Shown one piece after another: positions 8,629 to 51,530 of a stretch of 64,000 bases of DNA (its first letter is position 1; each line of letters opens with the position of its first letter). The stretch lies in NCBI GenBank assembly GCA_015231405.1, contig JADGBR010000002.1, forward strand, positions 4,642-68,641, read 5' to 3'. Under the pieces are notes generated by a model. The model saw only the letters and a list, made by a program, of their open reading frames with translations. It was not told the DNA's origin and searched no databases. Source of the stretch: Candidatus Omnitrophota bacterium (GTDB taxonomy: Bacteria; Omnitrophota; Gorgyraeia; Tantalellales; Tantalellaceae). A program made the position numbers and the translations under genes.

Positions 8629-9173
8629 TATCCCTCCGTGTTCTGTTTCTTTCTCCTAGCTTTCGCCGGGTTCCCATAACACACGGCGCCGGCAGGAACG
8701 TCCCTGGTCACGACCGAACCGGCTCCGATAACGGCGCCGGCCCCTATATTTACATCGGGAAGTATCGTCGAGTTGGCCCCGATGGACGCTCCCTTCCCCA
8801 CTTTCCATGATATCCCCGAAAGGTCCCGCGTCTTCCCGCTTTCGGGATATTTATCGTTCGTAAAAACGACATGCGGTCCTATGAAGACCCCGTCCTCCAC
8901 GATAAGCCCGTCGTATAAACAGCTTTTATTGTGCACGCGGACGTTATCCCCGATACGGACGTTCCTGTCCACATAGACCCCGTTCCCGATGACGCAGCCT
9001 TTCCCGATAACGGCCTTATCCATGATCTGCACGAAAGCCCAAATTACGGTACCTTCTCCTATAACAGCGCTTTCCGAGACAATAGCCGTCGGGTGCGTTC
9101 TCACTAAAGCCGTTCTTTTACCCATTCGATATTTCTCCTCAACCCTTCGTCTATGAACACTTTCGGCTCCCAT
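8628..9173 (-). CDS. Hexapeptide-repeat (left-handed beta-helix) sugar N- or O-acetyltransferase, PglD/WbbJ-like
   Basis: Repeated [LIV]G-x-x-x-x-I hexapeptides (VIGEGTVI, VIGKGCVIGNGVYV, IGANSTILPDVNIGAGAVIGAGSVV). The true start may be the internal Met at 9125. Confidence 0.8.
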   Translation of the reverse strand: MGAESVHRRRVEEKYRMGKRTALVRTHPTAIVSESAVIGEGTVIWAFVQIMDKAVIGKGCVIGNGVYVDRNVRIGDNVRVHNKSCLYDGLIVEDGVFIGPHVVFTNDKYPESGKTRDLSGISWKVGKGASIGANSTILPDVNIGAGAVIGAGSVVTRDVPAGAVCYGNPAKARRKKQNTEG

Positions 9174-10069
9174 CCGAACAGCTTTTTAGCCAGCGAATAA
9201 TCGCATAAAAGTTTCGGCACCTGCGCCAGCCGGTCCTTTGTGTGCACTATCTTGGACTTCGACCGGCAGAGCTCTTTTATTTTTTCGGCAATATAGTTGA
9301 TCGTAATGGCCTCTCCCGTACCGAAATTCACCGATCTCCCGACGGCATCTTTGTGTATCCCCATTAACAGGAAAGCGTCCACCATGTCGTCGACATAGGT
9401 AAAATCCCTCGACTGGTTCCCGTTCCCGTGTACGGTGATGGGCTTATTCCCGAGAGCTAGCTCGATGAATTTTGGTATGACGTCGTATGTGTGTCGCGGC
9501 CCGTAGGTGTTAAATGGCCTTATCACGGCAACGGGAAGCCCGTAGGTATTCCAGTAAGCATAGCAGTATTTATCCGCGGCGACCTTGCTGGCGGCGTAAG
9601 GAGAGGACGGAAAGAACAGGTGGTCCTCATTGATCGAGCCGCCTATCGTCATGCCGTATATTTCGCTCGAGGAAGTGCAGATGATACGTTTTATGCCGGA
9701 CCCTTCCTTCACCGCGTGAAGCATGTTAAGGGTCCCTATGACGTTCGTTTCCATGACCTCCATCGGATGGTCAAAAGAGTTAGGCACATAAGCGTCGGCG
9801 GCCAGGTGGAAAATTATATCGGGTCTAGCCTTTATCGCCAGGTCTTTGGCGTCGGGCGAAGCGATATTGCCGGTAATTATCTCGTCCAAGTCCTTTTCCG
9901 CATGCGATAAATTCTTTAAAGTGTATTTGGTGGTGCCGGTAGTCGAATTCCCTCTTACAAATATCGATACTTTGGCTCCCTCGCCGAGAAGTTTTTCGGT
10001 AAGGTGAGACCCCATGAACCCGTCCGCCCCCGTAACCAGGACTCTTTTTCCTCTGTATTTACCGAACAT
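9104..10069 (-). CDS. NAD-dependent epimerase/dehydratase (extended SDR)
   Basis: VLVTGADGFMGSHL Rossmann motif and a YxxxK region. 321 aa. Confidence 0.8.
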   Translation of the reverse strand: MFGKYRGKRVLVTGADGFMGSHLTEKLLGEGAKVSIFVRGNSTTGTTKYTLKNLSHAEKDLDEIITGNIASPDAKDLAIKARPDIIFHLAADAYVPNSFDHPMEVMETNVIGTLNMLHAVKEGSGIKRIICTSSSEIYGMTIGGSINEDHLFFPSSPYAASKVAADKYCYAYWNTYGLPVAVIRPFNTYGPRHTYDVIPKFIELALGNKPITVHGNGNQSRDFTYVDDMVDAFLLMGIHKDAVGRSVNFGTGEAITINYIAEKIKELCRSKSKIVHTKDRLAQVPKLLCDYSLAKKLFGWEPKVFIDEGLRRNIEWVKERL

Positions 10070-10347: not shown

Positions 10348-10737
10348 CTAAGCGATTTGAGCCTGCTCTCTCAAAGTCTCGAACTGGTCCTTGATCCTGT
10401 CATAGACGAATTCCGCGATCTGGGTCTTGTTCTCTTTTGACATCTCCAGGAACTTGCCGCCGACCAGAAATTGCTCATCGGTAGGCGATTTATGGATCCA
10501 CATTATTTTGAATATCGTCCTGACATTGTGAGCCACGAGCGGCAGATCGAATTCCAGGATCAATTTGTGGGACATGGCCGTAAAATGGTCCAGATAGAAA
10601 GACATCCCTCCCAAGCTTAAATTCTTGGCCAATACCTCCATGGGTGTTTCTTTCGCCAACAAAAAATCCTTACATTTCAATGCAAGATCAACGCTTATTC
10701 TCGGGTGTTTCCTATTATTGTGTACTAGTCCACTCAT
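10348..10737 (-). CDS. PilZ-domain (c-di-GMP-binding) protein
   Basis: RKHPR (RxxxR) and NLSLGGMSF (D/NxSxGG) motifs at the correct spacing. 129 aa. Confidence 0.7.
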   Translation of the reverse strand: MSGLVHNNRKHPRISVDLALKCKDFLLAKETPMEVLAKNLSLGGMSFYLDHFTAMSHKLILEFDLPLVAHNVRTIFKIMWIHKSPTDEQFLVGGKFLEMSKENKTQIAEFVYDRIKDQFETLREQAQIA

Positions 10738-10969: not shown

Positions 10970-12697
10970 TCAGATCACTTTCCGACGGGAAATGAATTTT
11001 CTCGCGATCATTTTCAATGTTTTTTTAATGGAACCGCATTTAAGGTCTTCCGAGGGAGTTTCGGGCTCGTAATCCAACGCTAACTTCACCGATATTTTAA
11101 TTTTTTCGGATGCGGACAAACGCGATATTTCACCGTCAAATCCTGGGTCCGGCGGGGGATAATCACCGGACCCGTGGTCATTTGAGCCTTTCCTTTTCAT
11201 CACTCTGTATTTTCCTATTGTCCAGAACTCATGGATATCATTCATAGAGACTTGTTTAAGAGCCCGCCTATTGACGGCGTGGTCAAGTATGGCCGATAGT
11301 ATCGCGGGTACTTCCGGATATTTCGGGCTTGTATGCGCGTAAACTATGACCGGTATGGAATTGGATATCATGTAGTCTATAGCATTTTCATAATACATTA
11401 TGATCGCCTCTATGTTCCCGTACCTCTTATCGAGAAAGAGTTCCGGGGCCACCGGAAATACGGGGATCTGGAGAACACGCGACCAACCGTCCCTAAGACA
11501 TGGATACGACGGATATCCGGAATAATCGTATGCGAAATCGGACGAATATAAATAACCTTCATCCTCCAGCGCCTTCATAAGTGAGGGGACATAGCGCCCT
11601 GTAGGGGCAGCGAACCCGGTCGTCACGATACCGATATTCCTGAAAAACTCTCCGGCTTTTCTTATATTATGCCTGTTGGTGGCGTAATCCCCGTAGGCGG
11701 CGTGATAATATCCGTGCGAACCCACGTCTATCCCGAGACCACGGCATTTTATTATCTCGTCAGGAGCTTTCTCGAACGATCTTACGTTAAAAAATATCGT
11801 TATCGCGCGGCTGTACTTCGAGAAAACCGGATAATACGCGTTGAACGTCCCCTTCTCATACTCGTCAGCGTCTATCCTGAGACAAAAGCTGTCGGAGGGG
11901 AACGTCTGTTCATTTTTTGAACGCCCGAAAGACCTTTCGGAAGCGACCCTTTCCCTGACCCTCATCCCCCGGGGTCCGAAATCCTTGTAAACCGACCGGC
12001 GGGCTTTTTTAAAAAAACCTGTCCCGGCATCCTCCAGGCCCATCCTGTCGGAAGCTTTATAGGACAGGCTGAGTGACCCGTCCTGTGCTATACCGGCGCA
12101 TGCCCCGCCCTCTATCATCCTCGCGGTTTTATCCAGAAGCTCCGCCCCGAGCGAGAGGTTCTTCATCCTTAACGACCGAAGATCATCATGGGGACGCACC
12201 TTAAGGGTTTTCCGCATCAGGATATCGCCCGCGTCCAGATCTTCGCTTATAAAATGAACTGTTACGCCTATCTTATCGATATCGTTATTGCGAAGAGCCC
12301 AGAATTCAGAATCGGCGCCCCTGTAATACGGCAGTATGCCGGAATGGAGATTTATGGCCCCTCGGGAAGCCTTACCGAAAATGTCGGCCGAAAGTTTACG
12401 CGTCCCGACGACAATGATAAGTTCCGGGGATATTTCCCCGAGCGCTTTCCCGGATTCCGGGGAGTTTATGTCTAGGACCCTGACAACTTTCAGGGCGGGG
12501 TATCTTCGCGCGAGCGCCTCATAATTCATTGCAAGTATCGCTCCATTAAGGAGATAAAGGGCTCTCTTGACCCTCGCCTTTAAGGTCACGGGCTTGACCT
12601 CGTAAACGATGGCCCTAATGTCATGACCCCGGGAAAGAAGCTTCCCCGAAACCATAAGGCCGTCAAGAATATCGCTGGTAAGTAACGCTATCCTCAT
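10970..12697 (-). CDS. Fusion protein: N-terminal formyltransferase domain (Fmt/ArnA-N-like) plus C-terminal NodB-type polysaccharide deacetylase/deformylase (ArnD-like)
   Basis: INLHSGILPYYRGADSEFWALRNND matches the formyl_transf core. The C-terminal half has NodB homology (RIDADEYE...GSHGYYH...). Confidence 0.6.
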   Translation of the reverse strand: MRIALLTSDILDGLMVSGKLLSRGHDIRAIVYEVKPVTLKARVKRALYLLNGAILAMNYEALARRYPALKVVRVLDINSPESGKALGEISPELIIVVGTRKLSADIFGKASRGAINLHSGILPYYRGADSEFWALRNNDIDKIGVTVHFISEDLDAGDILMRKTLKVRPHDDLRSLRMKNLSLGAELLDKTARMIEGGACAGIAQDGSLSLSYKASDRMGLEDAGTGFFKKARRSVYKDFGPRGMRVRERVASERSFGRSKNEQTFPSDSFCLRIDADEYEKGTFNAYYPVFSKYSRAITIFFNVRSFEKAPDEIIKCRGLGIDVGSHGYYHAAYGDYATNRHNIRKAGEFFRNIGIVTTGFAAPTGRYVPSLMKALEDEGYLYSSDFAYDYSGYPSYPCLRDGWSRVLQIPVFPVAPELFLDKRYGNIEAIIMYYENAIDYMISNSIPVIVYAHTSPKYPEVPAILSAILDHAVNRRALKQVSMNDIHEFWTIGKYRVMKRKGSNDHGSGDYPPPDPGFDGEISRLSASEKIKISVKLALDYEPETPSEDLKCGSIKKTLKMIARKFISRRKVI

Positions 12698-13605
12698 CCG
12701 ATAAAGTCCTTCAGGTCGTATTTACGTTCAAGGAACTCTGTTTTCATTAGAGCCCTCTTCTTAAGAGCAAGCGGCAGACGTTTCAACGCTCCGATGAACC
12801 CGATAAGCACCGTGTCCTGTCCCTTGAGAAGGAGAACTAATATCCTTGGCAAGGTGAGAAGAATATGCGCGAACAGTATGTCCTTCTCCCTCACGTTCTT
12901 CCAGATAAAGAGGAACATGTTCCTGTGGGCTATCGTCATCTTCCTCTTTTTCCCGTACTCCCTGTGAAAAGTGGTCGACTCGTCATGGAATACCACCGAC
13001 CGCGGCTCGTAAACCCCTTCCCACCCCAGACACATCGCCCTGAAACAAAGGTCGACCTCCTCCCATATGCCGGGAAGGTATAAGTCGTCGAACCCGCCCA
13101 TCGAAACAAAAGCGTCCCTCCGGAAGGCTCCGGTAGCGATCGAATGGGTCTTGCCTCCGGACATGAAATTATCATAATCCACCCTCATTTTTACCGCCCC
13201 CAGAGAGAATCCCAGGAAAGACTTTCCCCCATTGAAAGTGCCGTCGAAGTTCATGAGCCTGGGAGCGGCGAACATTATCTTTTCGTTCGAGAAATGCGCG
13301 ACGAGCGGGTCAATAAAATCCGGCTCCGCCTTCATATCGGTATTGAGTAGTATGACCACGTCGCTGTCGAGGCCCGCGACGAAAGCGTTGTAAGAAAATA
13401 GGACCAGGTTCCGTGGAGCGGGTATGAATCCCACTCCCGGGAAAGACCCTGCGACCAGCTCACGGCTCGAGTCGCTCGAACAATTATCGAGAACGTATAC
13501 CGCTGAATCGTGTACGGATCTTATGGCTGCCGCGCATACGGAGGGAAGGTACTTTTCCAAAAGGTCTCTGCCGTTATAGTTCAGTATGATTATGTCTATT
13601 TTCAC
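12694..13605 (-). CDS. Glycosyltransferase family 2
   Basis: MKIDIIILNYNGRDLL...YVLDNCSSDSS. Confidence 0.8.
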   Translation of the reverse strand: MKIDIIILNYNGRDLLEKYLPSVCAAAIRSVHDSAVYVLDNCSSDSSRELVAGSFPGVGFIPAPRNLVLFSYNAFVAGLDSDVVILLNTDMKAEPDFIDPLVAHFSNEKIMFAAPRLMNFDGTFNGGKSFLGFSLGAVKMRVDYDNFMSGGKTHSIATGAFRRDAFVSMGGFDDLYLPGIWEEVDLCFRAMCLGWEGVYEPRSVVFHDESTTFHREYGKKRKMTIAHRNMFLFIWKNVREKDILFAHILLTLPRILVLLLKGQDTVLIGFIGALKRLPLALKKRALMKTEFLERKYDLKDFIG

Positions 13606-13628: not shown

Positions 13629-15197
13629 TTATCGTTCCAACGTCTTTCCGGCGTTTCGGTCAGTCAAACAGAAAATCACGACGAAAAAAGCCGAAACCAG
13701 AAAAATAGCCGCGAGCGCTCCTGTAATGACGTAAACCAGATAAGAGTATTCAGGCGCGAAATGGAGTACTTTTATGGACCAGGCGTCAAACGCGTTATAA
13801 TCTTTCATACTGGCAATGATGGGCTTCGCGAACCAGTAATCGGGATCGTACATGAAAGGCACGTCTCTTCCGGATAACAGATAACTTACCCTGGCCATGA
13901 ACATCTTCCAGGCACCCGATATCGGAGAGAGGTCCGGCACAAAGTTTATTAGGTATTCTTCCTGGCCCAGGCGCTCTTTCACGAAAAAATAGAATTTGGA
14001 CTGATTGATCAGCATGCACGGCGCCATGGCGAGGAATCCGGCCATTGAAAAGAGCGTAATAAGTATCCTGGCGGCTAAACCTTTTGAGCGCGAAAGGTAT
14101 CCCCCGAGTACTAAAGCCATAAAAGGGACCGCGATAAGCAGGTATCTGGGTCCCCACGAGAAAAGCGATCCCCTTCTGAAATGGTTGGAATAAAAGAACA
14201 ATACCCCAAGGAAAAACATGAGGTAAAATATCATTTCCTTATCCTTCTTTCTGAATATATCCCTCACGGCGAAGATCGACAGCGCAAGCGGGATGTTATA
14301 ATAAAGGAACCCTTTGCCCGGGCTGACAAGGTAATAAAAGAGCCCTTTGACGAGATGCTGTCCCCTGAGAAGATGCCCCTTCATGTCCGTAACGCTGTAC
14401 GCCGTTCCCCCCGGAAAAAGATCGGAGTAGCCTTTGTAATAAGCGAACGCGAGAGTTGAGGAGACCGCCAATGACAAAAAGAAAGAGACCGCCGCGATAT
14501 ACTTACTTTTTCGGTCCAGCGGGCTGTCACATATCACCCAAAGGCCGTACAGAGTGAAGAAAGGTATATAAATAAAACTTTGCTGCCTCGCGAACATAGC
14601 GCACGCGCCGGCCAATGCCGCGAGGAACAGGAACCGCAACTTTTGTCCATCCTTATACATCAGGATACAGAGCGCCGACGTCAACAGGAACAGAATTAAC
14701 GTCGGCTCCGAAAAACCCGTGCGCGAGTAGACCGGAGCCATGGTACAGAGGCCATACACGAGCGATATCGCAACCGCGCCGGACCGTCCATGTCCCAGCC
14801 TGAGAGATATCAGGAAAATAAGCAACGCGTTGAAAGTCGATACGGTCGGGTTGAAGAAAGACACCGCCATCATCGTTATAAAATCGTGAGGGATATTCAC
14901 CAAAAAACGCGCCGCGAAATGTCCAAAGGCGTAAAAAGGGGTTATAAGGGCCGGAACTCCTATCCCCGCTCTTGAAGAATATCTTTTCCCGTCATTACCC
15001 ACAATGCCAGCATTCACCTTGTAACCAAGTGCGTTCTTTCCGTCCGGCTTCTCTATAAAAGCCGTTCCTTGCCCCAGCACGATACTTTCGGCGGTAAGGT
15101 AATCCTCGTAACCGTCGCCCCCGAAATGCCCTATCGAGAAAAATACGTAGAAAGATAAAAACAAAAAGAAGACCGCAAATCCTGTTTTATAGTTCAT
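13629..15197 (-). CDS. Polytopic membrane glycosyltransferase, GT-C fold (ArnT/PMT-like, GT39/GT83-like)
   Basis: 522 aa, more than 10 predicted TM helices, with an ArnT/PMT-like N-terminal loop region. Confidence 0.45.
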   Translation of the reverse strand: MNYKTGFAVFFLFLSFYVFFSIGHFGGDGYEDYLTAESIVLGQGTAFIEKPDGKNALGYKVNAGIVGNDGKRYSSRAGIGVPALITPFYAFGHFAARFLVNIPHDFITMMAVSFFNPTVSTFNALLIFLISLRLGHGRSGAVAISLVYGLCTMAPVYSRTGFSEPTLILFLLTSALCILMYKDGQKLRFLFLAALAGACAMFARQQSFIYIPFFTLYGLWVICDSPLDRKSKYIAAVSFFLSLAVSSTLAFAYYKGYSDLFPGGTAYSVTDMKGHLLRGQHLVKGLFYYLVSPGKGFLYYNIPLALSIFAVRDIFRKKDKEMIFYLMFFLGVLFFYSNHFRRGSLFSWGPRYLLIAVPFMALVLGGYLSRSKGLAARILITLFSMAGFLAMAPCMLINQSKFYFFVKERLGQEEYLINFVPDLSPISGAWKMFMARVSYLLSGRDVPFMYDPDYWFAKPIIASMKDYNAFDAWSIKVLHFAPEYSYLVYVITGALAAIFLVSAFFVVIFCLTDRNAGKTLER

Positions 15198-15200
15198 TTC

Positions 15201-16649
15201 TCATCCTTTTAGCACCGCCAGGGGCTTTAGCTTCGCTACCTTCCGGGCAAGCCCGATAGTCGAAAGATAGTCCGCCGCCAGACCGACGTTCTTGAAACAG
15301 CGAGGGTCCTGTCTTACTATTTTTTTGGAATTACCTTTGTAAAGGGTTATTCCCCTCCCCTTGAGAAGATCGACAAGCTCTTCCCTGGTTGACGACACCT
15401 CACCTATCTTATCTTTCCTGATACGGCCTGAACCGTGCCCGGCGGAATTGTAAGTACGGCTATTCCCTTCCATAGCCAGCGAGATATAGGTCGGGTCCCC
15501 CATGGATCCCGGAAGAAAGACAGGAGTTCCGGTATCTTCGAAAGGCGTCCCGGTGGCTTTCCCCGGGGGAAGAGCTCTTACACCACCTGTCCGATGCACC
15601 CACATATCCGACCCGGAATGACGCTCGAGATTGATCGACATATGCGAAAGATCATACAGAGTTCTCACCTCTTTGGTCTCCGGCCCGAATATTCCGCTCA
15701 CAGCCTTTTTAATTTTGTACGATATCAAAGCCCTGTTCGCGTAAGCGAAGTTGGCTCCGCCCATAAGAGCCGAAAGATAGAGCCCGGCGCTCGACGACCC
15801 TGCCTCAAGACCGAAAAGCGGGCATTCGCCGTCACGCGTCCGGAACATCATTTCTCGGAACAGCCCAAGCCTGGACCGGTTAAACGAGGACAACATCCGT
15901 TCGACGGCCACAAAACCCAGCATTAACGGCTCTCTGGCGCCGAGTGTCCTGGGTGAATACAAGTTCGTGAGCATGGCTCCGAAGCCTCCCGAGCCGGAAT
16001 GCGCCAAAATGTAACAACCGTTCTTCTTTATGCCCAATACTCCGGCGTTCTTTTCGTCGAATACTTCCTCCACCGTCTGCAATTCTATGAAATGGTTCCC
16101 GCCCCCCAGGATACCCAGCCTCCGCCTGGACAGCTCCATAACATGTTTCGGTACAGCGTCTTCTAGAAGCGAGTCTGCCCCCGGAACTCCGTTAAAAGCA
16201 TTGCCCCGGAGTTCGACATTATCGAGGTCGTCGGGACAATCCTTATACCTCGCCAGCACCCATCCCGCGCCCTCCCTCATTATGCCCTTTACATCCGAAA
16301 GAGCCAACTTCTCTTCAGTTAGCGAACCAAGACATATGGAATCCGCTAATTTAGAAAACAATTCGTTCATTCTCACGGGAGTGACGCGATCGTTCGTGAA
16401 AGGGAGCTCGAGCATCCTCATGCCGCAGTTCGGACCTGAGACCATAAGCTGCGGGAATATGTGCCCCGGGGAAACAGCCACGGCTCCGGTAGGAAAATCG
16501 TTGTCGAATTTGTCGTGGATATCTATTAGCCCGACAACGGGACTCGCGATCCTTTTGTCGGAAGCTATCAGGGCCAACTGCACTAGCGCCCTCTCAGAAG
16601 GCATAAGCTCATCGGGGGTATAAATGGCCACTTTATCCCGTTTATACAT
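15201..16649 (-). CDS. rtcB: RtcB-family RNA ligase-like protein
   Basis: GGGNHFIELQ, HSGSGGFG, WVHRTGGVRA and YNSAGHGSGR correspond to RtcB metal-ligand and His-GMP motifs. The start is placed at the internal Met that overlaps the upstream stop (ATGTATAA). Confidence 0.65.
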   Translation of the reverse strand: MYKRDKVAIYTPDELMPSERALVQLALIASDKRIASPVVGLIDIHDKFDNDFPTGAVAVSPGHIFPQLMVSGPNCGMRMLELPFTNDRVTPVRMNELFSKLADSICLGSLTEEKLALSDVKGIMREGAGWVLARYKDCPDDLDNVELRGNAFNGVPGADSLLEDAVPKHVMELSRRRLGILGGGNHFIELQTVEEVFDEKNAGVLGIKKNGCYILAHSGSGGFGAMLTNLYSPRTLGAREPLMLGFVAVERMLSSFNRSRLGLFREMMFRTRDGECPLFGLEAGSSSAGLYLSALMGGANFAYANRALISYKIKKAVSGIFGPETKEVRTLYDLSHMSINLERHSGSDMWVHRTGGVRALPPGKATGTPFEDTGTPVFLPGSMGDPTYISLAMEGNSRTYNSAGHGSGRIRKDKIGEVSSTREELVDLLKGRGITLYKGNSKKIVRQDPRCFKNVGLAADYLSTIGLARKVAKLKPLAVLKG

Positions 16650-17607
16650 CTTCACTCTCCGCGCAAACCTCAACGACCTCTTTTTCGGCGAACAGATTGT
16701 GCGAATACCTGAGCCGCACGAAAAAGAACATCCCGGATACGAGTGCCGTAGAGACCACCACAGCCCTGTCGATCGCGGCGACCATAAAGCCTTCCGCAAC
16801 AGAGAACCCTATTAAAAGAGAACTGACAGAGACGACCGTTTCCCTTATGCCCATATTGGAAGGTATCAGATTCACCATGTTCGACAGCTCCGTTATAGGT
16901 ATTATCGCCGCGACATTAAGGAATGAAACCTCGTACGAAAGAGCCGTGAAAACGACATAGTACCGCAAAATGAAAGCAAGATTTATTCCCATCTGGATCG
17001 CCGCCAGGCTATATATGAGCCTTCTGTCCACTTTAACGCTTTTGATGTCTTTTATGGCTTCCGATATCCTGGTGAATACGCCGTATCTATTGAGAAAGCC
17101 GGGTATAGGCACAAAAAAAACGGCCACGGAGACGGCCATGGCGCATACGTAAATGACCACAGGAACCAACAGGACCGGGGTTCCATGCTCGGCCATATAG
17201 ACCAGGCTCCCGGCGAGACCTACCAGACCGCATGTAAAAACGGCGGCGACGCTTCGTATGAGCCCGGTCGACAGGAATTTTGTATAACCGAAACCGTACT
17301 TTGACCTCAGATAAACGGCGTTCGTGACGATACCGGCGTTAGGCAGAAAAAGGTTATAGAACGCCATCATTACGCTCAGCCCGAAACACTCGTTCCTTTT
17401 AATTTTCACATCGTGCCTCCTAAGCAGCACGTGGAGCTTCATCCCGTCAAGATATCTCCCGGCCAGATATATAAACGCGATGAGCAAGAACTCGAGCTTA
17501 TGTTCCAAGAAACTCGCTTTTATGACTTCAAATTTCTTCCCGAGTATAAGAATTATGAATATCAACGTGGCGATAAGGACAATACTGTTAAACTTTTTTT
17601 TCAGCAT
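16642..17607 (-). CDS. Integral membrane protein, LPG-synthase-TM / flippase-like domain family
   Basis: 321 aa with about 8 TM helices. The N-terminus MLKKKFNSIVLIATLIFIILIL...RRH is typical of the UPF0104 family. Confidence 0.45.
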   Translation of the reverse strand: MLKKKFNSIVLIATLIFIILILGKKFEVIKASFLEHKLEFLLIAFIYLAGRYLDGMKLHVLLRRHDVKIKRNECFGLSVMMAFYNLFLPNAGIVTNAVYLRSKYGFGYTKFLSTGLIRSVAAVFTCGLVGLAGSLVYMAEHGTPVLLVPVVIYVCAMAVSVAVFFVPIPGFLNRYGVFTRISEAIKDIKSVKVDRRLIYSLAAIQMGINLAFILRYYVVFTALSYEVSFLNVAAIIPITELSNMVNLIPSNMGIRETVVSVSSLLIGFSVAEGFMVAAIDRAVVVSTALVSGMFFFVRLRYSHNLFAEKEVVEVCAESEDV

Positions 17608-19844
17608 ATCCCCTCAACCATCTTTTTTATGCGGGGAATATCCTTTTGGATATCCGTAACGGCAAGCTCCCGAAATTTGAAAGTGCCCGACAAGTAACCC
17701 GCGAACGCCGTCTCACGCTCCTCGATACCTGCCAGGAGATCTTTCCTTTCACCGACGATGTTATCCATAAGGCTTTGCCTCGTGTCGCAAGTCTCCATCA
17801 TTCTCCTGTACGGATCACGAGACCCTCCGGTGCCAAGGCCGAAAATCCCCGCTATATCCGCGTAGGCGCGTATAACTGCCCCGGGGATGATCTCTTTAAT
17901 GCCGACCCGTGTGCTCAGGTAGAACTTCATTCCTGTGGTCAATTCAAGCGCCGTCCTCGCAATATGCCGGATCTTAGCCCTTAGCATCATCCAGGGAGGC
18001 ACAGTAAGAAAAGGGTTCTTTCCCTTCAGATAGCTGAAAAAATGGACCCGTTTAGGATATGAATACACTTTCCTGTCCTCACCGAGGAATACCAGATCGT
18101 CTCCCAGGAAGGAATAACCGTCACGGACAAGGTTGAACGCTAAAGTCGTTTTTCCGGCGCCCGAAACAGCGGTGAATATATATCCGCCCCCGGCGCCGGC
18201 GACAGCCGACGCGTGTATCATAAGAAGACCCGTTCTTAGAGCGGCGTAATATACCAGCGGCTCGACTATCTCCGTCTGAAGAAAAACGGCCGACATCGAC
18301 GGAAAAAAGACCCTCGCGCATAGGGGAGTATTGAAGTACACATCGATATCGCGGCAGTCTATGCCCCGGATGAGAAATTTGTAGGGATAGATCTTTTTGA
18401 ACACCCCTTCCCTCAAAATATCTTTTTCACGCTTCTCGGGGAATCCGGCGTCGACAATGACGTTTATCCTCAATGATCCGGGAGCTCCCTTGCCGCGCAT
18501 CGCCGGGTCGAATTCTTTCCTGAAATGTTCCGCGTAATGAGCGTCCCTGGATCGGACATTCACCTCTATCCGGGAATGGATGTTCATGGTGAACACATGC
18601 CGCGCGCCGCCGGAAGCTATAGAGCCCACCTCTTCGAAACGGTCGCGGTATCTCCTGGCGACCTCCTCGGTGGAACACATCCTGGACGTTTCAACCGCCA
18701 TTTTACCGAATACTTCGAGCCCCGGCATTGAAAGAGCCTCTTCCATTTTTCCCGCCAGCGCCTTAAAATCACCCGGGTCGAACAACCATCCGTTAACGCC
18801 GTCCTTCACGATATCCGGGATACCGCTGATATCGCTGCCGATAACAGGCACGCCTCCTGCCATGGCCTCGGCTACAACGACCGGCATCCCCTCGGTCTCT
18901 CCTTTTCTATCAAAGACCGAAGGGACCAAAAGCGCGTCGCTCGCCGCGTAGTACCTCGGAAGGTCCGCCTGGGCCACCCATCCCGCGAATTTAAAATATT
19001 CCTCCAGGCGCTTATCTTTTACGGCCTTCTTTATTATGTCCTCAAGCGGGCCTCCGCCTGCCAATACCACGCGAAAATCTTTTTTCCGTCCGGTGAGTAC
19101 CTCCACGGCGCTGACTATATCTTTTATCCCTTTCTTCTCAACGAATTTACCGACAAAAAGGAAAGTAAATCTTTCTTCAAGCCCTAACTTCGCGCGGGCC
19201 CCCGGCCTGTCATTCCCCGGCCTGAACCTTGAGGTGTCGACTCCCATGGGGATAACTTCCGGCGCTTTCTCGTCGAATGATCCGGAAAGATTGACGAGCT
19301 CAGACCTCAAATAATTACTTACTGCCAGGACCATATCCGTATGGGCCGCTATGAATTTCGCCAGGATCCTTCCCGCCGAGCCTAGCCTTTTGAGAAAAAA
19401 GATATCAGCAGCGTGCGTTGTCGAAACGTGTTTTATCCCGGTGGTCATGCTCACAAAAGCCGAGATAAGCCCCTGCGGGACAAGCCAGTGTGAGTTAATA
19501 AGCCGGATGTTCTCCCTCCGGGCGAGGCTGATGACCGCCAGGAATTCCGAAATAAAATAGAACGGGAGCAAAAGCACGGACCACGGGTATTTCCTTATAT
19601 CGTTAAGCATCCCTACGCCGCTGGAGATGACTTCCAGTGATTCAGGAAAAAAATACCTGAATCTCCTTACGGTTACGCCCTCCAGATCCTCTTTCACCCT
19701 CGCTCCGGGCGAATGAGGCGCTACTATATAAACCTTATAGTAAGTTTTCAGCCGGAGGGCAAGATCAAGGACGAACCTGGCGGTCATGATGTCGCTTTTA
19801 TCCCTGGGAAAAGTGCTTGTAACGATAAGTATGCTCTTATTCAT
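17601..19844 (-). CDS. Two-domain protein: N-terminal GT4 glycosyltransferase fused to a C-terminal HPr-kinase-C-like P-loop domain
   Basis: GT4 motifs (GETEGMPVVVAEAMAGGVPVIGSD) in residues 1 to about 400. The C-terminal domain has HASAVAGAGGGYIFTAVSGAGKTTLAFNLVRDGYSFLGDDLVFL, which resembles the HprK/P C-terminal Walker-A region. Confidence 0.55.
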   Translation of the reverse strand: MNKSILIVTSTFPRDKSDIMTARFVLDLALRLKTYYKVYIVAPHSPGARVKEDLEGVTVRRFRYFFPESLEVISSGVGMLNDIRKYPWSVLLLPFYFISEFLAVISLARRENIRLINSHWLVPQGLISAFVSMTTGIKHVSTTHAADIFFLKRLGSAGRILAKFIAAHTDMVLAVSNYLRSELVNLSGSFDEKAPEVIPMGVDTSRFRPGNDRPGARAKLGLEERFTFLFVGKFVEKKGIKDIVSAVEVLTGRKKDFRVVLAGGGPLEDIIKKAVKDKRLEEYFKFAGWVAQADLPRYYAASDALLVPSVFDRKGETEGMPVVVAEAMAGGVPVIGSDISGIPDIVKDGVNGWLFDPGDFKALAGKMEEALSMPGLEVFGKMAVETSRMCSTEEVARRYRDRFEEVGSIASGGARHVFTMNIHSRIEVNVRSRDAHYAEHFRKEFDPAMRGKGAPGSLRINVIVDAGFPEKREKDILREGVFKKIYPYKFLIRGIDCRDIDVYFNTPLCARVFFPSMSAVFLQTEIVEPLVYYAALRTGLLMIHASAVAGAGGGYIFTAVSGAGKTTLAFNLVRDGYSFLGDDLVFLGEDRKVYSYPKRVHFFSYLKGKNPFLTVPPWMMLRAKIRHIARTALELTTGMKFYLSTRVGIKEIIPGAVIRAYADIAGIFGLGTGGSRDPYRRMMETCDTRQSLMDNIVGERKDLLAGIEERETAFAGYLSGTFKFRELAVTDIQKDIPRIKKMVEGIC

Positions 19845-20662
19845 GCTACGCGGCGTTCCACGCCCCCTGAGCCTTTTTTAACCGCTACGACGAGAACGGA
19901 TCCCGCCCCGGCCCATGGCATATATCTCTCCAGAAATCCACCCACCCGAACAGCGGCGGAATTTTCCCTGTCGTAGACTTTTTTATCTCTGAAAAATCCG
20001 GAGAATTCCACAAGGCTGAAAATATGGTCGACAGGCATGGTCCTTTCGATATGGAAACCGCCGTTCGTTATCGCTCTTTCCAGCTCCCCAACATTGAAAT
20101 ATCTCTGGTAGTAATAGTTCTTTTCGGGTTTACCCATAAGACGCCTGAGTGAACGGCTGCGTTTCATAAGGTTGAGCGGAGCCTTGACACCAAGGAACAC
20201 GTTAAAGTACGGCACTGATAAAATAAGCCTCCCGCCGTCCTTTAGGACGCGGTACGCTTCCCGTAACGCCTTATCCGGACCTTCGGCGAAATGTTCGATG
20301 ACCCCGAAGGAAAGGTAGGCGTCGAAAGATCCTGACCCGAAAGGGAGATCCCTTATATCGGCCGTGGACACTTTCTGTGACGGGTCATATTCCCTTATCT
20401 TCCTCATACATTCATCGTCATAGTCGACGCCTGAGATATCATATCCCATTCCCCTCAACTTTATGACCCACGGGCCAAGCCCGCACCCCGCTTCCAGAAC
20501 ACTTCCTCCACGGGGAAGATAGGAAATAACCGTATCCTTGATCTTAATGACCCTGGGATAAGTGAAAATACCCATGATAGTCGCGATGTCTATCTCTTCC
20601 CAGTTTTCCCTCCAGGCTTTTCGTGTGGCTTCATCGGTCCTTACGGCTTTCCCTTGTCTCAT
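19841..20662 (-). CDS. Class I SAM-dependent methyltransferase
   Basis: VLEAGCGLGPWVIKL motif I. 273 aa. Confidence 0.8.
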   Translation of the reverse strand: MRQGKAVRTDEATRKAWRENWEEIDIATIMGIFTYPRVIKIKDTVISYLPRGGSVLEAGCGLGPWVIKLRGMGYDISGVDYDDECMRKIREYDPSQKVSTADIRDLPFGSGSFDAYLSFGVIEHFAEGPDKALREAYRVLKDGGRLILSVPYFNVFLGVKAPLNLMKRSRSLRRLMGKPEKNYYYQRYFNVGELERAITNGGFHIERTMPVDHIFSLVEFSGFFRDKKVYDRENSAAVRVGGFLERYMPWAGAGSVLVVAVKKGSGGVERRVA

Positions 20663-20689: not shown

Positions 20690-21643
20690 TCAACCTTTCT
20701 TTTTCTTGTCGTAAAAATTTTTCTTTAGCCTGTACAGTATCTCCTCATTGAGCTTCCTGTTGGCGGACATGATATCCCCCAAGAGTCCTATCATGATTAT
20801 CATGAAGCCGGTTATAAGACACGCCGACGCTATTATCAAAGATTGTACATGCCCTCCCTGATGGCGGGTGAAGTGTGCCGCAAGGAAACGCGCGACAAGA
20901 AAAAGGCCGGCGAATATGGGGATAAGGCTTAGTTTGACGAAACTTTTCAAAGGCTCGTACATCATATAGATGCGCAGCATCGTTACAACGCTTCTCTTTA
21001 TGTACGAAGGGACGCTTTTTATCAGCCTGGATTCCCTGAGCTTGGCATTTGTGGAGATGTTCACATAGGTTATCGGAAGCTCTTTCAACCCAGCCTGAAT
21101 TATGCTTTCTATCGTATACGTATAATTCGAAAATATATTAAGCCGCATAGCTGCGTCCCTGGAATACGCCCTGAACCCGCTGGTAGTATCCGGAATGTCC
21201 GTTTTCGAGAACTTTCTCACGACTGAGCTGCCTATTCCCTGGAGCCATTTCTTGACCGGCGAAAAGTGGCTGATAGAAGCGATATCACGGCACCCGATCA
21301 CCATTTCAGCCTTACCTTCAAGGATCGGCTCTATCAGTTTGGGGATATCCGCGCCGCTATACTGGTTATCGCCGTCGATATTCACTATTATGTCCGCTCC
21401 AGCTTCCACGGAGCTATCCAGGCCCCGCCTGAAAGCCTCAGCCAGACCCCTATTAACCGGGAGATCGACGATATGCCTGACGCCCAGCCCCCTCGCTATC
21501 TCGACTGTAGCGTCGGTCGAGCCGTCGTTGACCACCAGAACCTCGATCTCGTCGATGCCCGCGATCTTTTTCGGAAGGTCTCTAAAAGCCTCCGGCAAAG
21601 TTTTTTCCTCGTTGAAACAGGGTATCTGAATGATGAGCTTCAT
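20690..21643 (-). CDS. Polyprenol-phosphate glycosyltransferase (GT2, ArnC/GtrB/DPM1-like with C-terminal TM helices)
   Basis: MKLIIQIPCFNEEKTL...VVNDGSTDAT...NIDGDNQY, plus two C-terminal TM helices. Confidence 0.75.
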   Translation of the reverse strand: MKLIIQIPCFNEEKTLPEAFRDLPKKIAGIDEIEVLVVNDGSTDATVEIARGLGVRHIVDLPVNRGLAEAFRRGLDSSVEAGADIIVNIDGDNQYSGADIPKLIEPILEGKAEMVIGCRDIASISHFSPVKKWLQGIGSSVVRKFSKTDIPDTTSGFRAYSRDAAMRLNIFSNYTYTIESIIQAGLKELPITYVNISTNAKLRESRLIKSVPSYIKRSVVTMLRIYMMYEPLKSFVKLSLIPIFAGLFLVARFLAAHFTRHQGGHVQSLIIASACLITGFMIIMIGLLGDIMSANRKLNEEILYRLKKNFYDKKKKG

Positions 21644-21676: not shown

Positions 21677-22438
21677 TTATTTCCGTATTGCAACACAGTC
21701 TGACTCTTTACGCAATATCCATATATACGTCGGCACCAGCCAATACAGATGCTCCGAGACGAACACGGCCGCCCTCTGGCCCAATGAGCCTGGGCTGACC
21801 ATATCCGTAGCCCGGAATGTCACAGGATCGTTTATAACTTTAACGGTATAATCTGACACTTTAAAATCCGATACCATCTTTTTCAATCCCGGGAGGCAGA
21901 AAGACCTCACGTCATAAGCCCCGCCCCCGGCCAAACCCAGATATGCGTCGGCGAGAGGCTTGGGAAAATATGAAAGGAACGGAAGTTTGTAATGCGGTTC
22001 TATCGGGATAAGCCGGTTCATAGCCGTGAAATAACACACCCCGCCGGGTTTGAGGACACGCCATATTTCTTTCACAAGCTTTCCCGGGTCATCGACATGT
22101 TCATATATCCCGGCGCATACCGCGGCGTCAAAAGATCCGTCCGGGAAATCCATACGCTCGCCGCTCTGGACCGAGAAACGGATCCCCGGCCATTTAGCGC
22201 GCGCGTAATTGACCGCCTCCTCGTCAGGGTCAATGCCGGTCACATCAAAACCGTCCTTTAGCGACGCCGAGATGATCCCAAGCGAACAGCCTATGTCAAG
22301 AAGCGACCCGGAGCGTTTCCCGGAGTCATGTAACACGGCCTTGATCTTTTCGGCCTTCCTCGTCCTGTCGGCTATGTACGCCTCTTCCGCTTTCTTGTTA
22401 TGTTCCTGAAATAGTTTTTTCCTGAATTCCTTTTTCAT
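21677..22438 (-). CDS. Class I SAM-dependent methyltransferase
   Basis: LLDIGCSLGIISASL motif I, FDAAVCAGIYEHV and VLKPGGVCYF motifs. Confidence 0.8.
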   Translation of the reverse strand: MKKEFRKKLFQEHNKKAEEAYIADRTRKAEKIKAVLHDSGKRSGSLLDIGCSLGIISASLKDGFDVTGIDPDEEAVNYARAKWPGIRFSVQSGERMDFPDGSFDAAVCAGIYEHVDDPGKLVKEIWRVLKPGGVCYFTAMNRLIPIEPHYKLPFLSYFPKPLADAYLGLAGGGAYDVRSFCLPGLKKMVSDFKVSDYTVKVINDPVTFRATDMVSPGSLGQRAAVFVSEHLYWLVPTYIWILRKESDCVAIRK

Positions 22439-22451
22439 ATTATTCCGGGCC

Positions 22452-23267
22452 TCACCCGGAAAAAGAGTTCAACGCCTCGTCCAATTTGGAATACTCGGCG
22501 TCTATTTTGTTTTTTTTGATATATACGGTCACCCTGGACATCCACACAAGTGTCGCGGCGAAAGAGTAAAACACGATCCAAGGAATGAATATCTCGGATC
22601 TGACGAAAAAATTAAGTATCGAGACCGGCAGCATAAAATAAATGATCGCAGGGAAAGTGCATACATAGTGAAGACCGCTGAAACATTTTTTCAGCGGGGA
22701 AGCCGCGTTCTTTTCGTCCCTTGAGCTTTCCATCTTTTTAAAGACCACCGGCTTAGCAGGTTCAAGCAGTCTTCCCCTGAGCCTCTTATACAGGACGCTG
22801 TAGTGGACATCCAGAAAAGCGTCGATCAAATGCGCCGAATACCCGGCGGCTATAGACAATAAAAAGACCCAGAAAATACCGTACCGGAGATATAGCCCAA
22901 AGCCTATCGACATAAAGAACCACGGATGCACGATATAATGGGCCATGTAATCGAAAAATCTTCCGGTCGCGCCCATCTGATCCCTGTATCTGGCTATCTC
23001 ACCGTCGACCATGTCCAGAGTATACCAGAATTGCAGACCTATCGCTCCTATCAGGAAAGCGGGTTTGGTGGCGAAAAGAAATACCCCGCATATGACGAAA
23101 CCCGTGACGATGAACGTTAAAGTAACGCCGTTAGCGCTTATAGGCGTATGGAGAAGAAGCCATGTGATCCTGACGGATACCTTCCTCAGGATATTCATCA
23201 TGTACCAGTCATCGGTATTACGCCGCGGATGCTGGCATCTTATCTCTAATTCCCTTATTGTTTCCAT
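22452..23267 (-). CDS. CDP-alcohol phosphatidyltransferase-family membrane protein
   Basis: DMVDGEIARYRDQMGATGRFFDYMAH fits the DG-x2-AR-x8-G-x3-D signature (last Asp replaced by His). Multi-TM. Confidence 0.6.
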   Translation of the reverse strand: METIRELEIRCQHPRRNTDDWYMMNILRKVSVRITWLLLHTPISANGVTLTFIVTGFVICGVFLFATKPAFLIGAIGLQFWYTLDMVDGEIARYRDQMGATGRFFDYMAHYIVHPWFFMSIGFGLYLRYGIFWVFLLSIAAGYSAHLIDAFLDVHYSVLYKRLRGRLLEPAKPVVFKKMESSRDEKNAASPLKKCFSGLHYVCTFPAIIYFMLPVSILNFFVRSEIFIPWIVFYSFAATLVWMSRVTVYIKKNKIDAEYSKLDEALNSFSG

Positions 23268-23268
23268 C

Positions 23269-24066
23269 CTATCCTTCCAAGGACCGGTCTTTGAAATACC
23301 TGTCCAGAACGCCCTTCTCTTTCCAGTCCATGTACCTGGAATAATCCCTTTCCGAATCGAACTCGAGCCACCCTCCGTTCACCGGGACGGCCTTGACCCT
23401 GTGCCCGAGGTCTATTGCTCTCTGCAGCATATCCGTCATATATCCGTTCTGAAAGTTCTTGGACCTCAGCCATTTTTTATCCCAATATTCCTTTTTATCG
23501 GTGTCGTATATGTTCGAGATAATGTCTATCCCCTTTTTGGAAAATTTTAAAAGCCCTATATACTGGCCTTTCACCCTGGATATATCCGGCCTGGGCTCGC
23601 CTATATCCACGATCTCATTTTTTCCGTTAAAGACCATCGACTCCGTCTCAGAGAGAAAATCCTCACCGAACCGGTCCCTGAAATACCCCGCGCCGTTCAA
23701 GTCGACGACGACGCTTATGTCGTCCTTTGACTCCAAAAGAGCCCTGAGCACTTTGCGTTCATAGACAATATCCCCGTAAGATACCATCACGGCGCCGTCC
23801 CATAAAGGCCTGGTGCAAAAGAACGATTCCACCATGTTCGTCGCGGCAAAACGCTCGTTAATAACCTTTTTGGCCCCGGGGCAATCGAGATTATCGGCCA
23901 TATGCCCGGCGACAACTATTATGTCTTCGATCCCCTCGGCACGCATCGCGCCAAGCTGCCTGTCTATGATCCTTTTTCCAAGGAACTCAAGCATGCACTT
24001 ATGCTTATCACGAGTGAGAGATCCCATCCTGGACCCTGTTCCCGCCGCCAAAATCACCGCTTTCAT
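23269..24066 (-). CDS. Sugar-phosphate or phospho-amide nucleotidyltransferase (Cj1416/LicC-like cytidylyltransferase)
   Basis: MKAVILAAGTGSRMG is the NTP_transferase N-terminal motif. 265 aa. Confidence 0.7.
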   Translation of the reverse strand: MKAVILAAGTGSRMGSLTRDKHKCMLEFLGKRIIDRQLGAMRAEGIEDIIVVAGHMADNLDCPGAKKVINERFAATNMVESFFCTRPLWDGAVMVSYGDIVYERKVLRALLESKDDISVVVDLNGAGYFRDRFGEDFLSETESMVFNGKNEIVDIGEPRPDISRVKGQYIGLLKFSKKGIDIISNIYDTDKKEYWDKKWLRSKNFQNGYMTDMLQRAIDLGHRVKAVPVNGGWLEFDSERDYSRYMDWKEKGVLDRYFKDRSLEG

Positions 24067-24719
24067 ATTTTCCTCCAGAATCCTGTCCTGTTCCTGAACG
24101 CCGTGACCAAGGCGTCGTTCACATAACTGTCAGGGCTTTTCCTCTCAGGGTGCCACTGCACCCCCAGTATCGGATACTTCGTATGACAGAGAGCTTCCAC
24201 GCCGGACGTGATCGAAACAGCGAGAACCTTGAGTTCGGGTGACACCTTCCCGAAAAATACGCCCTGCCTGTGGAATGAATTGACGTTGATCCTTGATCTC
24301 CCCAGGAGCGACTTGAACTCGACATCCGTCACATTGACCTCGTGGCTATCCGTAACATGGGTCTTCAAGTCCAGCCCTTTAAGAGTGAGAGTTTCGGGCA
24401 AGCCTCCCTTAAAGTAGTAATTGATGAACTGCATCCCCCGGCATATCCCCAGGACGGGAAGTGAGCGTTTTACCGCAAGGTCCAGCAGCTTTTTCTCCTG
24501 CTGGTCCCTCACCGGTTCGGACCCTATATCGTTCCCGCCGGAAAGGATCATCCCTCTTATGTCAAAATAGCGCAAATACGACTCTACATCCGCTACCGCG
24601 TTCGATACGGGCAATAACGTTATACCCTTACCCCCGAAGTAGCTGACATAGTCGTTATAAAGAAAATCCGCCGGACTGTCGTATTTCCGCTCTATGCCGC
24701 AAGAAATGGCCAAAAGCAT
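24063..24719 (-). CDS. Class I glutamine-amidotransferase-like hydrolase (PuuD/Cj1417-like)
   Basis: GICRGMQ (nucleophile Cys) and GVQWHPE (His/Glu) motifs. 218 aa. Confidence 0.7.
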   Translation of the reverse strand: MLLAISCGIERKYDSPADFLYNDYVSYFGGKGITLLPVSNAVADVESYLRYFDIRGMILSGGNDIGSEPVRDQQEKKLLDLAVKRSLPVLGICRGMQFINYYFKGGLPETLTLKGLDLKTHVTDSHEVNVTDVEFKSLLGRSRINVNSFHRQGVFFGKVSPELKVLAVSITSGVEALCHTKYPILGVQWHPERKSPDSYVNDALVTAFRNRTGFWRKI

Positions 24720-24722
24720 GTT

Positions 24723-28395: not shown

Positions 28396-28396
28396 A

Positions 28397-28918: not shown

Positions 28919-28928
28919 TCACTCCCCT

Positions 28929-37807: not shown

Positions 37808-37820
37808 TTTCCGGACCTTT

Positions 37821-39581: not shown

Positions 39582-39586
39582 ATGTC

Positions 39587-42370: not shown

Positions 42371-42379
42371 AACACCCCT

Positions 42380-43108: not shown

Positions 43109-43122
43109 ATTCTCACCCCTCT

Positions 43123-45086: not shown

Positions 45087-45109
45087 CCCGCACCTTTATT
45101 CTGAATGGT

Positions 45110-51514: not shown

Positions 51515-51530
51515 GATATATTCGGCACCG

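Follow-up and report, generated by a model that had tools for sequence, protein, structure and literature searches.

An RtcB-fold protein with a retained histidine-GMP core and altered RNA-strand contacts, encoded in a glycan-synthesis island of a Candidatus Omnitrophota bacterium

To our knowledge, the activation of a phosphomonoester with GMP is confined, among ligases, to the RtcB family, whose members have so far been examined on nucleic acids only. The presence of an rtcB-like gene among membrane protein and glycosyltransferase (GT) genes in a Candidatus Omnitrophota bacterium raised the question of what its product acts on. The gene is located at positions 15201-16649 (minus strand) of a stretch of 64,000 nucleotides from contig JADGBR010000002.1, which is here called the window. 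The original prediction had proposed either a paralogue recruited for the ligation of phosphoesters other than RNA, for example the joining of a sugar phosphate, or an RNA-repair response wired to envelope stress. The first of these explanations is favoured here, on the basis that the protein belongs to a non-canonical group, its gene keeps a conserved position between a flippase-like gene and a probable GT-C-type glycosyltransferase gene, the catalytic histidine is retained and the contacts to the 5'-OH strand of RNA are replaced; the joining of a sugar phosphate becomes one of several possible outcomes. The protein is a genuine variant of the RtcB family that is conserved, seems not to have been described before and has probably moved to another class of substrate.

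The mechanical open reading frame (ORF) of the gene runs from 15201 to 16799 and has a TTG start, and an ATG at 16649 gives a protein of 482 amino acids that corresponds to NCBI entry MBF0215753.1, from a Candidatus Omnitrophota metagenome-assembled genome (MAG). Because the N terminus that begins at this ATG (MYKRDK...) aligns with all homologues of the clade described below, the coordinates 15201-16649, stop codon included, that had been given to the gene are correct. The TTG start was discarded, because the 50 extra residues overlap the upstream gene and lack a counterpart in the homologues. The start of the RtcB-like gene overlaps by 8 nucleotides (ATGTATAA) the stop of the upstream flippase-like gene (16642-17607), whereas a gap of 3 nucleotides separates its stop from the downstream gene, which starts at 15197 and has its AAGGA Shine-Dalgarno-like sequence within the RtcB-like 3' end. 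The overlap with the neighbouring genes that was initially reported is therefore real on the upstream side but not on the downstream side. Neither a signal peptide nor a transmembrane segment was evident when the N terminus was inspected by eye, and a tblastn search of the 64-kb window, part of a contig of 205 kb, found this RtcB-like gene only.

That the protein is a genuine, full-length member of the RtcB family is clear far beyond chance. It matches the Pfam RtcB profile PF01139 with 238.7 bits (cut-off 27; E = 1.9e-70) over positions 1-426 of 426, and its best sequence matches in the PDB are TTHA1785 and the Pyrococcus horikoshii enzyme (PhoRtcB). The AlphaFold2 model, built from 84 sequences, has a predicted local distance difference test score (pLDDT) of 92.3 and a predicted template modelling score (pTM) of 0.93, and it superposes on the RtcB-GMP structure of P. 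horikoshii (4dwq) with a template modelling (TM) score of 0.83 (E = 4e-37). In agreement with the original prediction, the four motifs quoted in it (LGGGNHFIELQ, HSGSGGFG, HRTGG and NSAGHGSGR) were all found in the translation. Nevertheless, the protein stays below the cut-offs of all NCBIfam RtcB equivalogs (118.6 versus 407 bits for NF007153 and 98.1 versus 271.8 bits for TIGR03073), and by its sequence it is not a canonical RtcB. An intein-containing RtcB, the best NCBIfam match, was rejected because the match is partial, covers the extein part only and reaches 178.6 bits against a cut-off of 1150.

The protein belongs to a rare clade. A search of 5.8 billion proteins returned just seven others, with 298-510 bits and 42-48% identity, and the next matches were canonical RtcBs with at most 189 bits and at most 31% identity. 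When one genome per species was scanned by pattern, carriers were found in 2 of 185,579 species genomes, an Omnitrophota MAG and a MAG labelled Planctomycetia. The clade comprises about 8 lineages that are 42-52% identical to each other, and an exhaustive HMMER search of 1.84 billion representatives showed it to be a single branch within a large and varied group of non-canonical RtcB-like proteins, which outscore the canonical ones. In a neighbour-joining tree it is monophyletic and stands beside P0121 and a group with the motifs DTAPNCGMR/HGTGK. Its position outside the canonical RtcB group, to which the NCBIfam scores and the drop from 408-510 bits within the clade to at most 189 bits for canonical RtcBs both point, favours the suggestion that the protein is a paralogue. 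A metagenome scan provided 80 more loci (79 non-canonical and 1 canonical by hidden Markov model score), 88 sequences formed 83 clusters at 90% identity, and 98 sequences were aligned: 8 of the tight clade, 59 of a sister subfamily, 13 other non-canonical ones and 18 canonical ones.

The alignment allowed us to ask which of the residues defined in PhoRtcB are kept. In that enzyme the M1 metal is held by Cys98, His234 and His329 and the M2 metal, which binds the β and γ phosphates of GTP, by Asp95, Cys98 and His203 (PMC9745838). The crystal structures further show that Asn330 bonds the γ phosphate and that Asn202 contacts the α-β bridge and the 5'-OH (PMC9745838, PMC8051266, PMC8668186), and that the guanine is read by Glu206, Ser385 and Lys480 (PMC9745838, PMC8668186). 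The histidine that accepts GMP (His404 of PhoRtcB, His337 of the Escherichia coli enzyme) has its counterpart in His405, which was located through the alignment with PH1602, lies in the NSAGHGSGR motif (codon 15435-15437, minus strand) and is invariant in 98 of the 98 aligned sequences; the loss of the catalytic histidine, which the original prediction had named as a refutation, is not seen. Together with His404, the residues Cys98, Asn202, His203, His234 and His329 are invariant in the 80 non-canonical sequences as well as in the canonical ones. The M1 ligands are all present (Cys75, His217 and His336), Asn202 is kept as Asn185, and all 8 members of the tight clade retain Arg408 and the three guanine contacts (Glu189, Thr387 and Lys481 for Glu206, Ser385 and Lys480). 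Since the catalytic core is invariant across sequences that are about 30% identical, the protein is probably an active enzyme that forms a covalent histidine-nucleotide. Of the Cys/His metal ligands, whose conservation had been named as a check, Cys75, His186, His217 and His336 are all kept, but the M2 site holds two of its three ligands (Cys75 and His186), because Asp95 is replaced by glycine (Gly72) in 8 of 8 clade members.

In contrast to the catalytic core, the residues that bind the RNA strand are changed. Arg238, Arg190 and Gln194 of PhoRtcB hold the phosphates of the 5'-OH strand; Arg238 binds its first two phosphodiesters, and the counterpart change R189A in the E. coli enzyme makes sealing 200-fold slower (PMC8051266). 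In all members of the tight clade Arg238 is replaced by glycine (Gly221), Arg190 by Leu, Ile or Val, and Gln194 by arginine (Arg177), so that Asn202 is the only residue of this set that is kept. Other positions altered throughout the tight clade are Asn330 (Met, Ile or Val), the lysine of HRKG (Thr, Ser or Cys) and Arg412 (Asp, Ser, Gln or Glu). Right after HSGSGGFG, where canonical RtcB has Arg238, the clade carries a specific insertion (residues about 235-275; 15825-15947, minus strand) that lengthens the chain by about 27 residues over canonical RtcB; the AlphaFold2 model shows it as a hairpin of two helices (241-256 and 258-273), which is basic and whose net charge ranges from +2 to +10 across the clade; the complete proteins are also basic, with isoelectric points (pI) of 8.7-9.6. 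The sister subfamily differs in another way, since it swaps all three guanine contacts (E206D, S385A and K480M; C termini ending in ...LMY or LMA), which hints that it uses a different nucleotide. Some other subfamilies show further losses (H67 to C, HGAGE, and K480 lost). By its fold and catalytic core the protein is thus a member of the RtcB superfamily, but by its polynucleotide contacts, its equivalog scores and its genomic partners it fails membership among the RNA ligases.

The genomic partners are conserved across the clade. The flippase-like gene upstream (16642-17607, minus strand) encodes a polytopic membrane protein of 321 amino acids of the LPG_synthase_TM family (PF03706, 88.6 bits; TIGR00374 flippase-like domain), and the gene downstream (13629-15197, minus strand) encodes a polytopic membrane protein of 522 amino acids, probably a GT-C-type (PMT_2/ArnT-like) glycosyltransferase. 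The latter matches the NCBIfam model LA_3751/LA_3752 putative glycosyltransferase with 35.8 bits and itself has no Pfam or PDB sequence match, but it has 34-46% identical orthologues directly downstream in all clade loci, and those of the related loci L003-L005 (39-46% identical) carry PMT/PMT_2 (GT-C) matches; PDB sequence searches with the two membrane neighbours of the RtcB-like gene gave no match. The order flippase-like gene, RtcB-like gene and gene for a membrane protein of about 510-520 amino acids is kept in 8 of 8 clade loci (the window, L001/L002 and L003-L008). The flippase-like orthologue is the gene just before the RtcB-like one in 7 of them, with a methyltransferase gene between the two in L004, and a flippase-like gene was also found in L009. 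The junctions are mostly overlapping or nearly abutting genes even though the proteins are 42-52% identical, and most clade loci also share an ArnC-like GT2, a GT4, a second GT2, a deacetylase and a short-chain dehydrogenase/reductase (SDR). Next to the flippase-like gene, the window encodes a GT4 (residues about 1-410) fused to an HprK/PEPCK-like P-loop kinase-type domain (residues about 411-747, with SGAGKTT and GDD motifs; 17601-19844, minus strand), which was recognized with Pfam and NCBIfam and has weak matches to HprK-related kinases A and B. The fusion recurs in L003 and L007, the domain is a free ORF in L004, L008, L013 (Pfam ScmC) and L014, and a dTMP-kinase-like protein takes its place in L005.

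The same theme extends to more distant relatives. In the nearest outgroup, P0121, the RtcB-like gene again follows a flippase-like gene and has a dTMP-kinase-like gene nearby, and a glycan context was found for 5 of the 6 sister or outgroup proteins that were looked up, the exception being L010. The lipid flippase Wzx appears in four such loci: L011 (GT4, RtcB-like, dTMP-kinase-like, Wzx), L012 (RtcB-like, Wzx, with a PMT_2 gene next on the opposite strand), L013 (Bac_transf, RtcB-like, Wzx, GT4, ScmC/HprK-like) and L014 (PMT_2, RtcB-like, Wzx, HprK-like). BLAST clustering revealed that the 59-member sister subfamily has its own cassette, composed of a GT4, a DUF1616/DUF6541 membrane protein of about 650 amino acids, a protein of about 122 amino acids that belongs to no family, a GT4, the RtcB-like protein, a dTMP-kinase-like P-loop protein of about 200 amino acids and Wzx; it was found in L011, L016, L019, L024, L025, L032, L043, L052, L084, L089 and about 30 others. 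In this subfamily a kinase-like gene lies at most 4 genes downstream of the RtcB-like gene in 37 of 44 loci, Wzx at most 4 genes downstream in 31 of 44 and a GT4 at most 2 genes upstream in 38 of 43, and at least one of the three is present within 4 genes on either side in 47 of 50. Other subfamilies have an HprK/PEPCK-like gene directly upstream (L057, L070 and L092) or APH-family kinases (L077 and L083).

Taken together, the loss of the 5'-OH contacts, the remodelled acceptor face, the lack of RNA-repair partners and the persistent coupling to a flippase, a GT-C, a GT4 and a kinase suggest that the substrate is no longer RNA. A reaction that would be compatible with all of these features starts with His405 taking GMP from GTP as in RtcB, assisted by the M1 site (Cys75, His217 and His336) and with Glu189, Thr387 and Lys481 reading the guanine. 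The GMP would then be passed to a phosphomonoester other than an RNA end, most likely a sugar or a lipid-linked glycan intermediate that a partner kinase has phosphorylated; in the window, the HprK-like domain of the nearby GT4 fusion protein would be this kinase. The hydroxyl group of a second, non-nucleotide partner would attack the activated X-O-P-P-G, yielding a phosphodiester and releasing GMP, and the flippase-like protein from the upstream gene could then bring the product to the other side of the membrane, for use by the GT-C from the downstream gene. The RtcB-fold enzyme itself would act at the cytoplasmic face, or in the cytoplasmic phase, of lipid-linked glycan assembly. In its full form, a cytoplasmic RtcB-fold enzyme that works off RNA ends and ligates a component in lipid-linked glycan assembly, this proposal is the one that we prefer, but it is tentative and we would not yet bet on it. 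The broader statement that the protein is a non-RNA enzyme of a glycan pathway that uses histidine-GMP chemistry, which covers both this ligation and the nucleotidyl transfer discussed next, appears to us reasonably probable.

If the reaction stopped after the transfer of GMP, the protein would be a sugar-phosphate nucleotidylyltransferase that converts a kinase-made sugar phosphate into a GDP-sugar (sugar-P-P-G), a donor for the adjacent GT4. The replacement of Arg238 and Arg190 would be expected from an enzyme that needs no acceptor strand, and the fusion of a kinase-like domain with the GT4, as seen in the window, L003 and L007, together with the GT4 and small P-loop kinase genes that flank the gene in most sister loci, would provide both the phosphate and the user of the product. 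Likewise, the kinases that adjoin the RtcB-like gene in L083 and L077 are of the APH family, which includes the anomeric sugar kinases NahK and AmgK, and the variation of the guanine contacts between subfamilies is what different NDP-sugars would require. RtcB itself is known to leave stable ppG-capped ends (PMC10630183), and sugar-P-P-G would be the analogue of RNA3'pp5'G or of the stable DNA3'pp5'G cap. However, the window already encodes ordinary nucleotidyltransferases (23269-24066 and 44355-45086), the change of Gln194 to arginine is invariant in 67 sequences and, with the hairpin at the old acceptor site, suggests that an anionic acceptor is still bound, and the genes most tightly linked to the RtcB-like gene encode a flippase and a GT-C, whose substrates are lipid-linked and not soluble. 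We consider a nucleotidylyltransferase unlikely, while giving it real weight.

A different possibility is that the protein still joins or caps RNA or DNA ends and that its placement in glycan clusters reflects co-regulation, be it for RNA repair under envelope stress or for the processing of a transcript or tRNA tied to the MprF-like flippase family; MprF-type proteins use aminoacyl-tRNA. The full RtcB fold with a complete histidine-GMP core and guanine contacts would agree with such a role, as would the basic insert in a basic protein, and RtcB paralogues whose nucleic-acid activities vary are known, such as Myxococcus xanthus RtcB1-3 (cited in PMC10630183). It is difficult to reconcile with the replacement of all structurally defined 5'-OH-strand contacts except Asn202, and with tight junctions to membrane glycan enzymes that persist at 42-52% identity and a theme that recurs with Wzx replacing the MprF-like protein. 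Moreover, neither rtcA nor rtcR, archease or prfH was seen among the annotated genes of the 64-kb window or of 13 annotated related loci, and the envelope-stress explanation of the original prediction thus found no support. We consider a nucleic-acid enzyme improbable. The remaining alternative, a catalytically dead RtcB-fold protein with a regulatory function, such as a scaffold or sensor that binds GTP or GMP and governs the flippase or the GT-C after the loss of the second metal site, would account for the missing M2 ligand Asp95 and the missing γ-phosphate contact Asn330 in the tight clade, as well as for the further losses in other subfamilies (H67 to C, HGAGE and K480). Nevertheless, the six catalytic residues that remain invariant in 80 non-canonical sequences only about 30% identical are hard to explain in a protein without catalysis, and the tight clade keeps Arg408 and all guanine contacts, so that a dead protein seems very improbable indeed.

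Several observations weigh against the ligation of glycan or lipid phosphates. For the tight clade, every catalytic model meets its main internal difficulty in the absent M2 aspartate: because the clade has glycine at the position of Asp95 and, unlike the sister groups, which carry an aspartate two residues before it (position C-5), a valine or leucine there, its guanylylation might be impaired or might need another ligand. In mutational work on E. coli RtcB, the counterpart of Asp95 is reported to be essential. A candidate for a compensating ligand is Asp46 (codon 16512-16514, minus strand), an invariant residue unique to the tight clade that directly follows the conserved His45 (DIHDK) and whose position is variable in canonical and sister sequences. 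The comparison of RNA contacts covers the 5'-OH strand, and contacts to the 3'-phosphate strand have no structural definition by which their loss could be scored. The basic protein and its basic insert are, as noted, also compatible with nucleic-acid binding. As for the neighbourhoods, the counts given above for the sister cassette (47 of 50 and the others) come from non-canonical loci with no matched canonical RtcB set beside them, and they depend on crude longest-ORF gene calls and on neighbour families named from one representative per BLAST cluster. No kinase-like gene was seen in L001/L002, L010 or L012.

The proposal gains definition when the protein is compared with known systems. Canonical RtcBs (PH1602, E. 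coli RtcB and human RTCB) share with it the fold, the GMP-histidine, the M1 ligands, two of the three M2 ligands, Asn202, the guanine contacts and the C-terminal ...VLKG, but they are only 26-31% identical, and the RtcB-like protein has HR(T/S/C)G instead of HRKG, a DIHDKxxND loop with a 2-residue insertion and the hairpin of about 27 residues. Whereas the partners of canonical genes are rtcA, rtcR, archease or prfH, those of the RtcB-like gene are a flippase, a GT-C, a GT2 or GT4 and a kinase domain. The M. xanthus RtcB1-3 proteins and the RtcB2-PrfH ribosome-repair module testify to the diversification of the family and to a reaction that can end with a guanylylated (capped) phosphate, but their substrates are still nucleic-acid ends and their partners are RNA-related. 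The gene block itself resembles the 4-amino-4-deoxy-L-arabinose (Arn) pathway and three-component periplasmic glycosylation, since it contains an SDR similar to UXS (UDP-glucuronic acid decarboxylase) and the C-terminal part of ArnA, a predicted ArnA-N-like formyltransferase fused to a predicted ArnD-like deacetylase, a GT2 similar to ArnC and dolichol-phosphate mannose (DPM) synthase, a small flippase-type membrane protein and a putative ArnT/PMT_2-like GT-C. It differs in that the flippase belongs to the LPG_synthase_TM family and not to ArnE/F or GtrA. We know of no Arn or Gtr system that contains an RtcB-fold protein or a GT4-kinase fusion. The pair GalK/GalT, in which GalT is a ping-pong enzyme with a covalent His-UMP, and the salvage pair AmgK-MurU proceed from a kinase-made sugar phosphate to nucleotidyl transfer. 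The logic of a covalent histidine-NMP (nucleoside monophosphate) passed to a sugar phosphate would match that of the proposal, although the folds are unrelated (HIT and nucleotidyltransferase) and the parallel is a mechanistic analogy only. An RtcB paralogue in a glycan gene cluster was not found reported in the literature searched, nor did PADLOC or NCBIfam describe one, although an earlier mention may exist; a PADLOC search for anti-phage systems gave no match for the RtcB-like protein or for three neighbours.

On a larger scale, the non-canonical RtcB-fold proteins could form an unrecognized class of nucleotide-dependent cell-envelope enzymes in which partner kinases phosphorylate sugars or lipid-linked glycans and a covalent histidine-NMP then activates these phosphomonoesters, with a phosphodiester bridge or a nucleotide-activated sugar as the result. 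Many uncultured lineages would thus have taken over, for the assembly of glycans, the chemistry by which RNA 3'-phosphates are ligated, and the clade of the window (Omnitrophota/Planctomycetota) would be one rare branch, tied to an Arn-like flippase/GT-C module. We regard this generalization as plausible, falling a little short of even chances. If it held, and if biochemistry agreed, a new functional class could be established, and the building blocks of glycans, phosphodiester-linked or nucleotide-activated, would be reached by an enzymatic route not known before. A step now missing would be supplied for about 90 gene clusters of uncultured bacteria, and the automatic annotation of such proteins as tRNA-splicing ligase RtcB would be misleading. 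It would also follow that swapping Arg238, Arg190, Gln194 and the insertion, with the histidine-GMP core kept, should switch the acceptor away from RNA.

The surroundings of the gene agree with its earlier description as part of a polysaccharide operon, as the entire 64-kb window is made up of glycan-synthesis genes. The minus-strand genes from 47336 down to 10970 are all at most 84 nucleotides apart, which places the RtcB-like gene inside a tightly packed glycan super-operon of about 36 kb. Terminator-like sites occur at the rate expected by chance (15 seen versus 14.2 expected), and the scan for promoters and terminators adds nothing beyond the tiny gaps. All genes of the conserved block lie on the minus strand. 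Its upstream edge is formed by a CDP-alcohol phosphotransferase-family membrane protein (22452-23267), with orthologues in L003, L004, L005 and L008, and a methyltransferase (21677-22438) lies on the upstream side of the ArnC-like GT2. This GT2 (20690-21643), a polyprenyl-phosphate glycosyltransferase of the DPM synthase/ArnC/AglJ-like type, matches PF00535 with 93 bits and, in the PDB, DPM synthase 5mlz (3e-12) and ArnC (1.7e-08), and it has 58-76% identical orthologues in L003, L004, L005, L007 and L008. It is followed by an S-adenosylmethionine (SAM)-dependent methyltransferase (19841-20662; orthologues in L004, L007 and L008) and by the GT4-kinase fusion. Downstream of the GT-C gene are a second GT2 (12694-13605), with orthologues in all long clade loci, and a fusion of an ArnA-N-like formyltransferase with an ArnD-like polysaccharide deacetylase (10970-12697; Formyl_trans_N 65 bits, Polysacc_deac_1 31 bits). 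All NCBIfam Arn models score far under their cut-offs for this fusion, which is complete in L004 and L008, while the deacetylase part stands alone in L001 and L007. The sugar-nucleotide SDR, of the UXS/Pal-like type (9104-10069), is 73-83% identical across the clade loci. A PilZ-domain protein of 129 amino acids (10348-10737, minus strand) is flanked by the only large gaps of the operon (232 and 278 nucleotides), and a 10/12 sigma-70-like site with an extended -10 TG is located nearby at 10831-10804, so that this region may be a control point of cyclic di-GMP for the downstream part of the island.

Just upstream of the block, a minus-strand gene set (21677-29729) resembles the O-methyl-phosphoramidate (MeOPN) pathway, which has been described as specific to Campylobacter (PMC6429109). 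The set comprises the genes at 24723-27128, 24063-24719, 23269-24066, 22452-23267, 28397-28918, 21677-22438 and 28929-29729. The first encodes a PPDK-like protein of 801 amino acids with the architecture of L-glutamine kinases, which reaches the equivalog NF004508/PRK05849 with 791.7 bits. The set further includes a class-I amidotransferase, whose best match, γ-glutamyl-CDP-amidate hydrolase, is below its cut-off with 81 bits, a MobA-like NTP (nucleoside triphosphate) transferase, a protein of the adenosine 5'-phosphosulfate (APS) kinase subfamily that is above its cut-off with 164.5 bits, and methyltransferases, and the CDP-alcohol phosphotransferase-family protein could be the transferase of the pathway. 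MeOPN-like genes with 38-61% identity are also present in L003. A pathway of this type makes a 3'-phospho-nucleotide donor, and a link between it and the RtcB-like protein was considered; because it is absent from the sister-subfamily cassettes, it cannot be the general partner, although such a link would be conceivable in the tight clade.

Further genes of the island were recognized on the same strand. A nonulosonic-acid block (36411-47336) contains NeuB, a hydrolysing 2-epimerase and a CMP-sugar synthetase-type CTP_transf_3 protein, and it also holds two AsnB-like amidotransferases and a HisH/HisF-like pair; two proteins without a family match (34526-36394 and 43123-44406) accompany it. Sulfate-activation genes, which include a CysN-type GTPase fused to an APS kinase and a PAPS_reduct/CysD-like protein, and the gene of a membrane-anchored sulfatase-superfamily protein of 729 amino acids with weak LtaS/arylsulfatase matches are located at 59750-62546 and 29814-32003. 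The glycan of the island may be sulfated or may receive phospho-substituents outside the membrane. Two more PMT_2-type GT-C proteins and a YfhO-family membrane protein are encoded at 49820-56941. The sole long plus-strand gene of the window (47798-49828) encodes a B12-binding radical-SAM protein of 676 amino acids, and B12-binding radical-SAM genes are also found near the RtcB-like gene in L001/L002 and L009.

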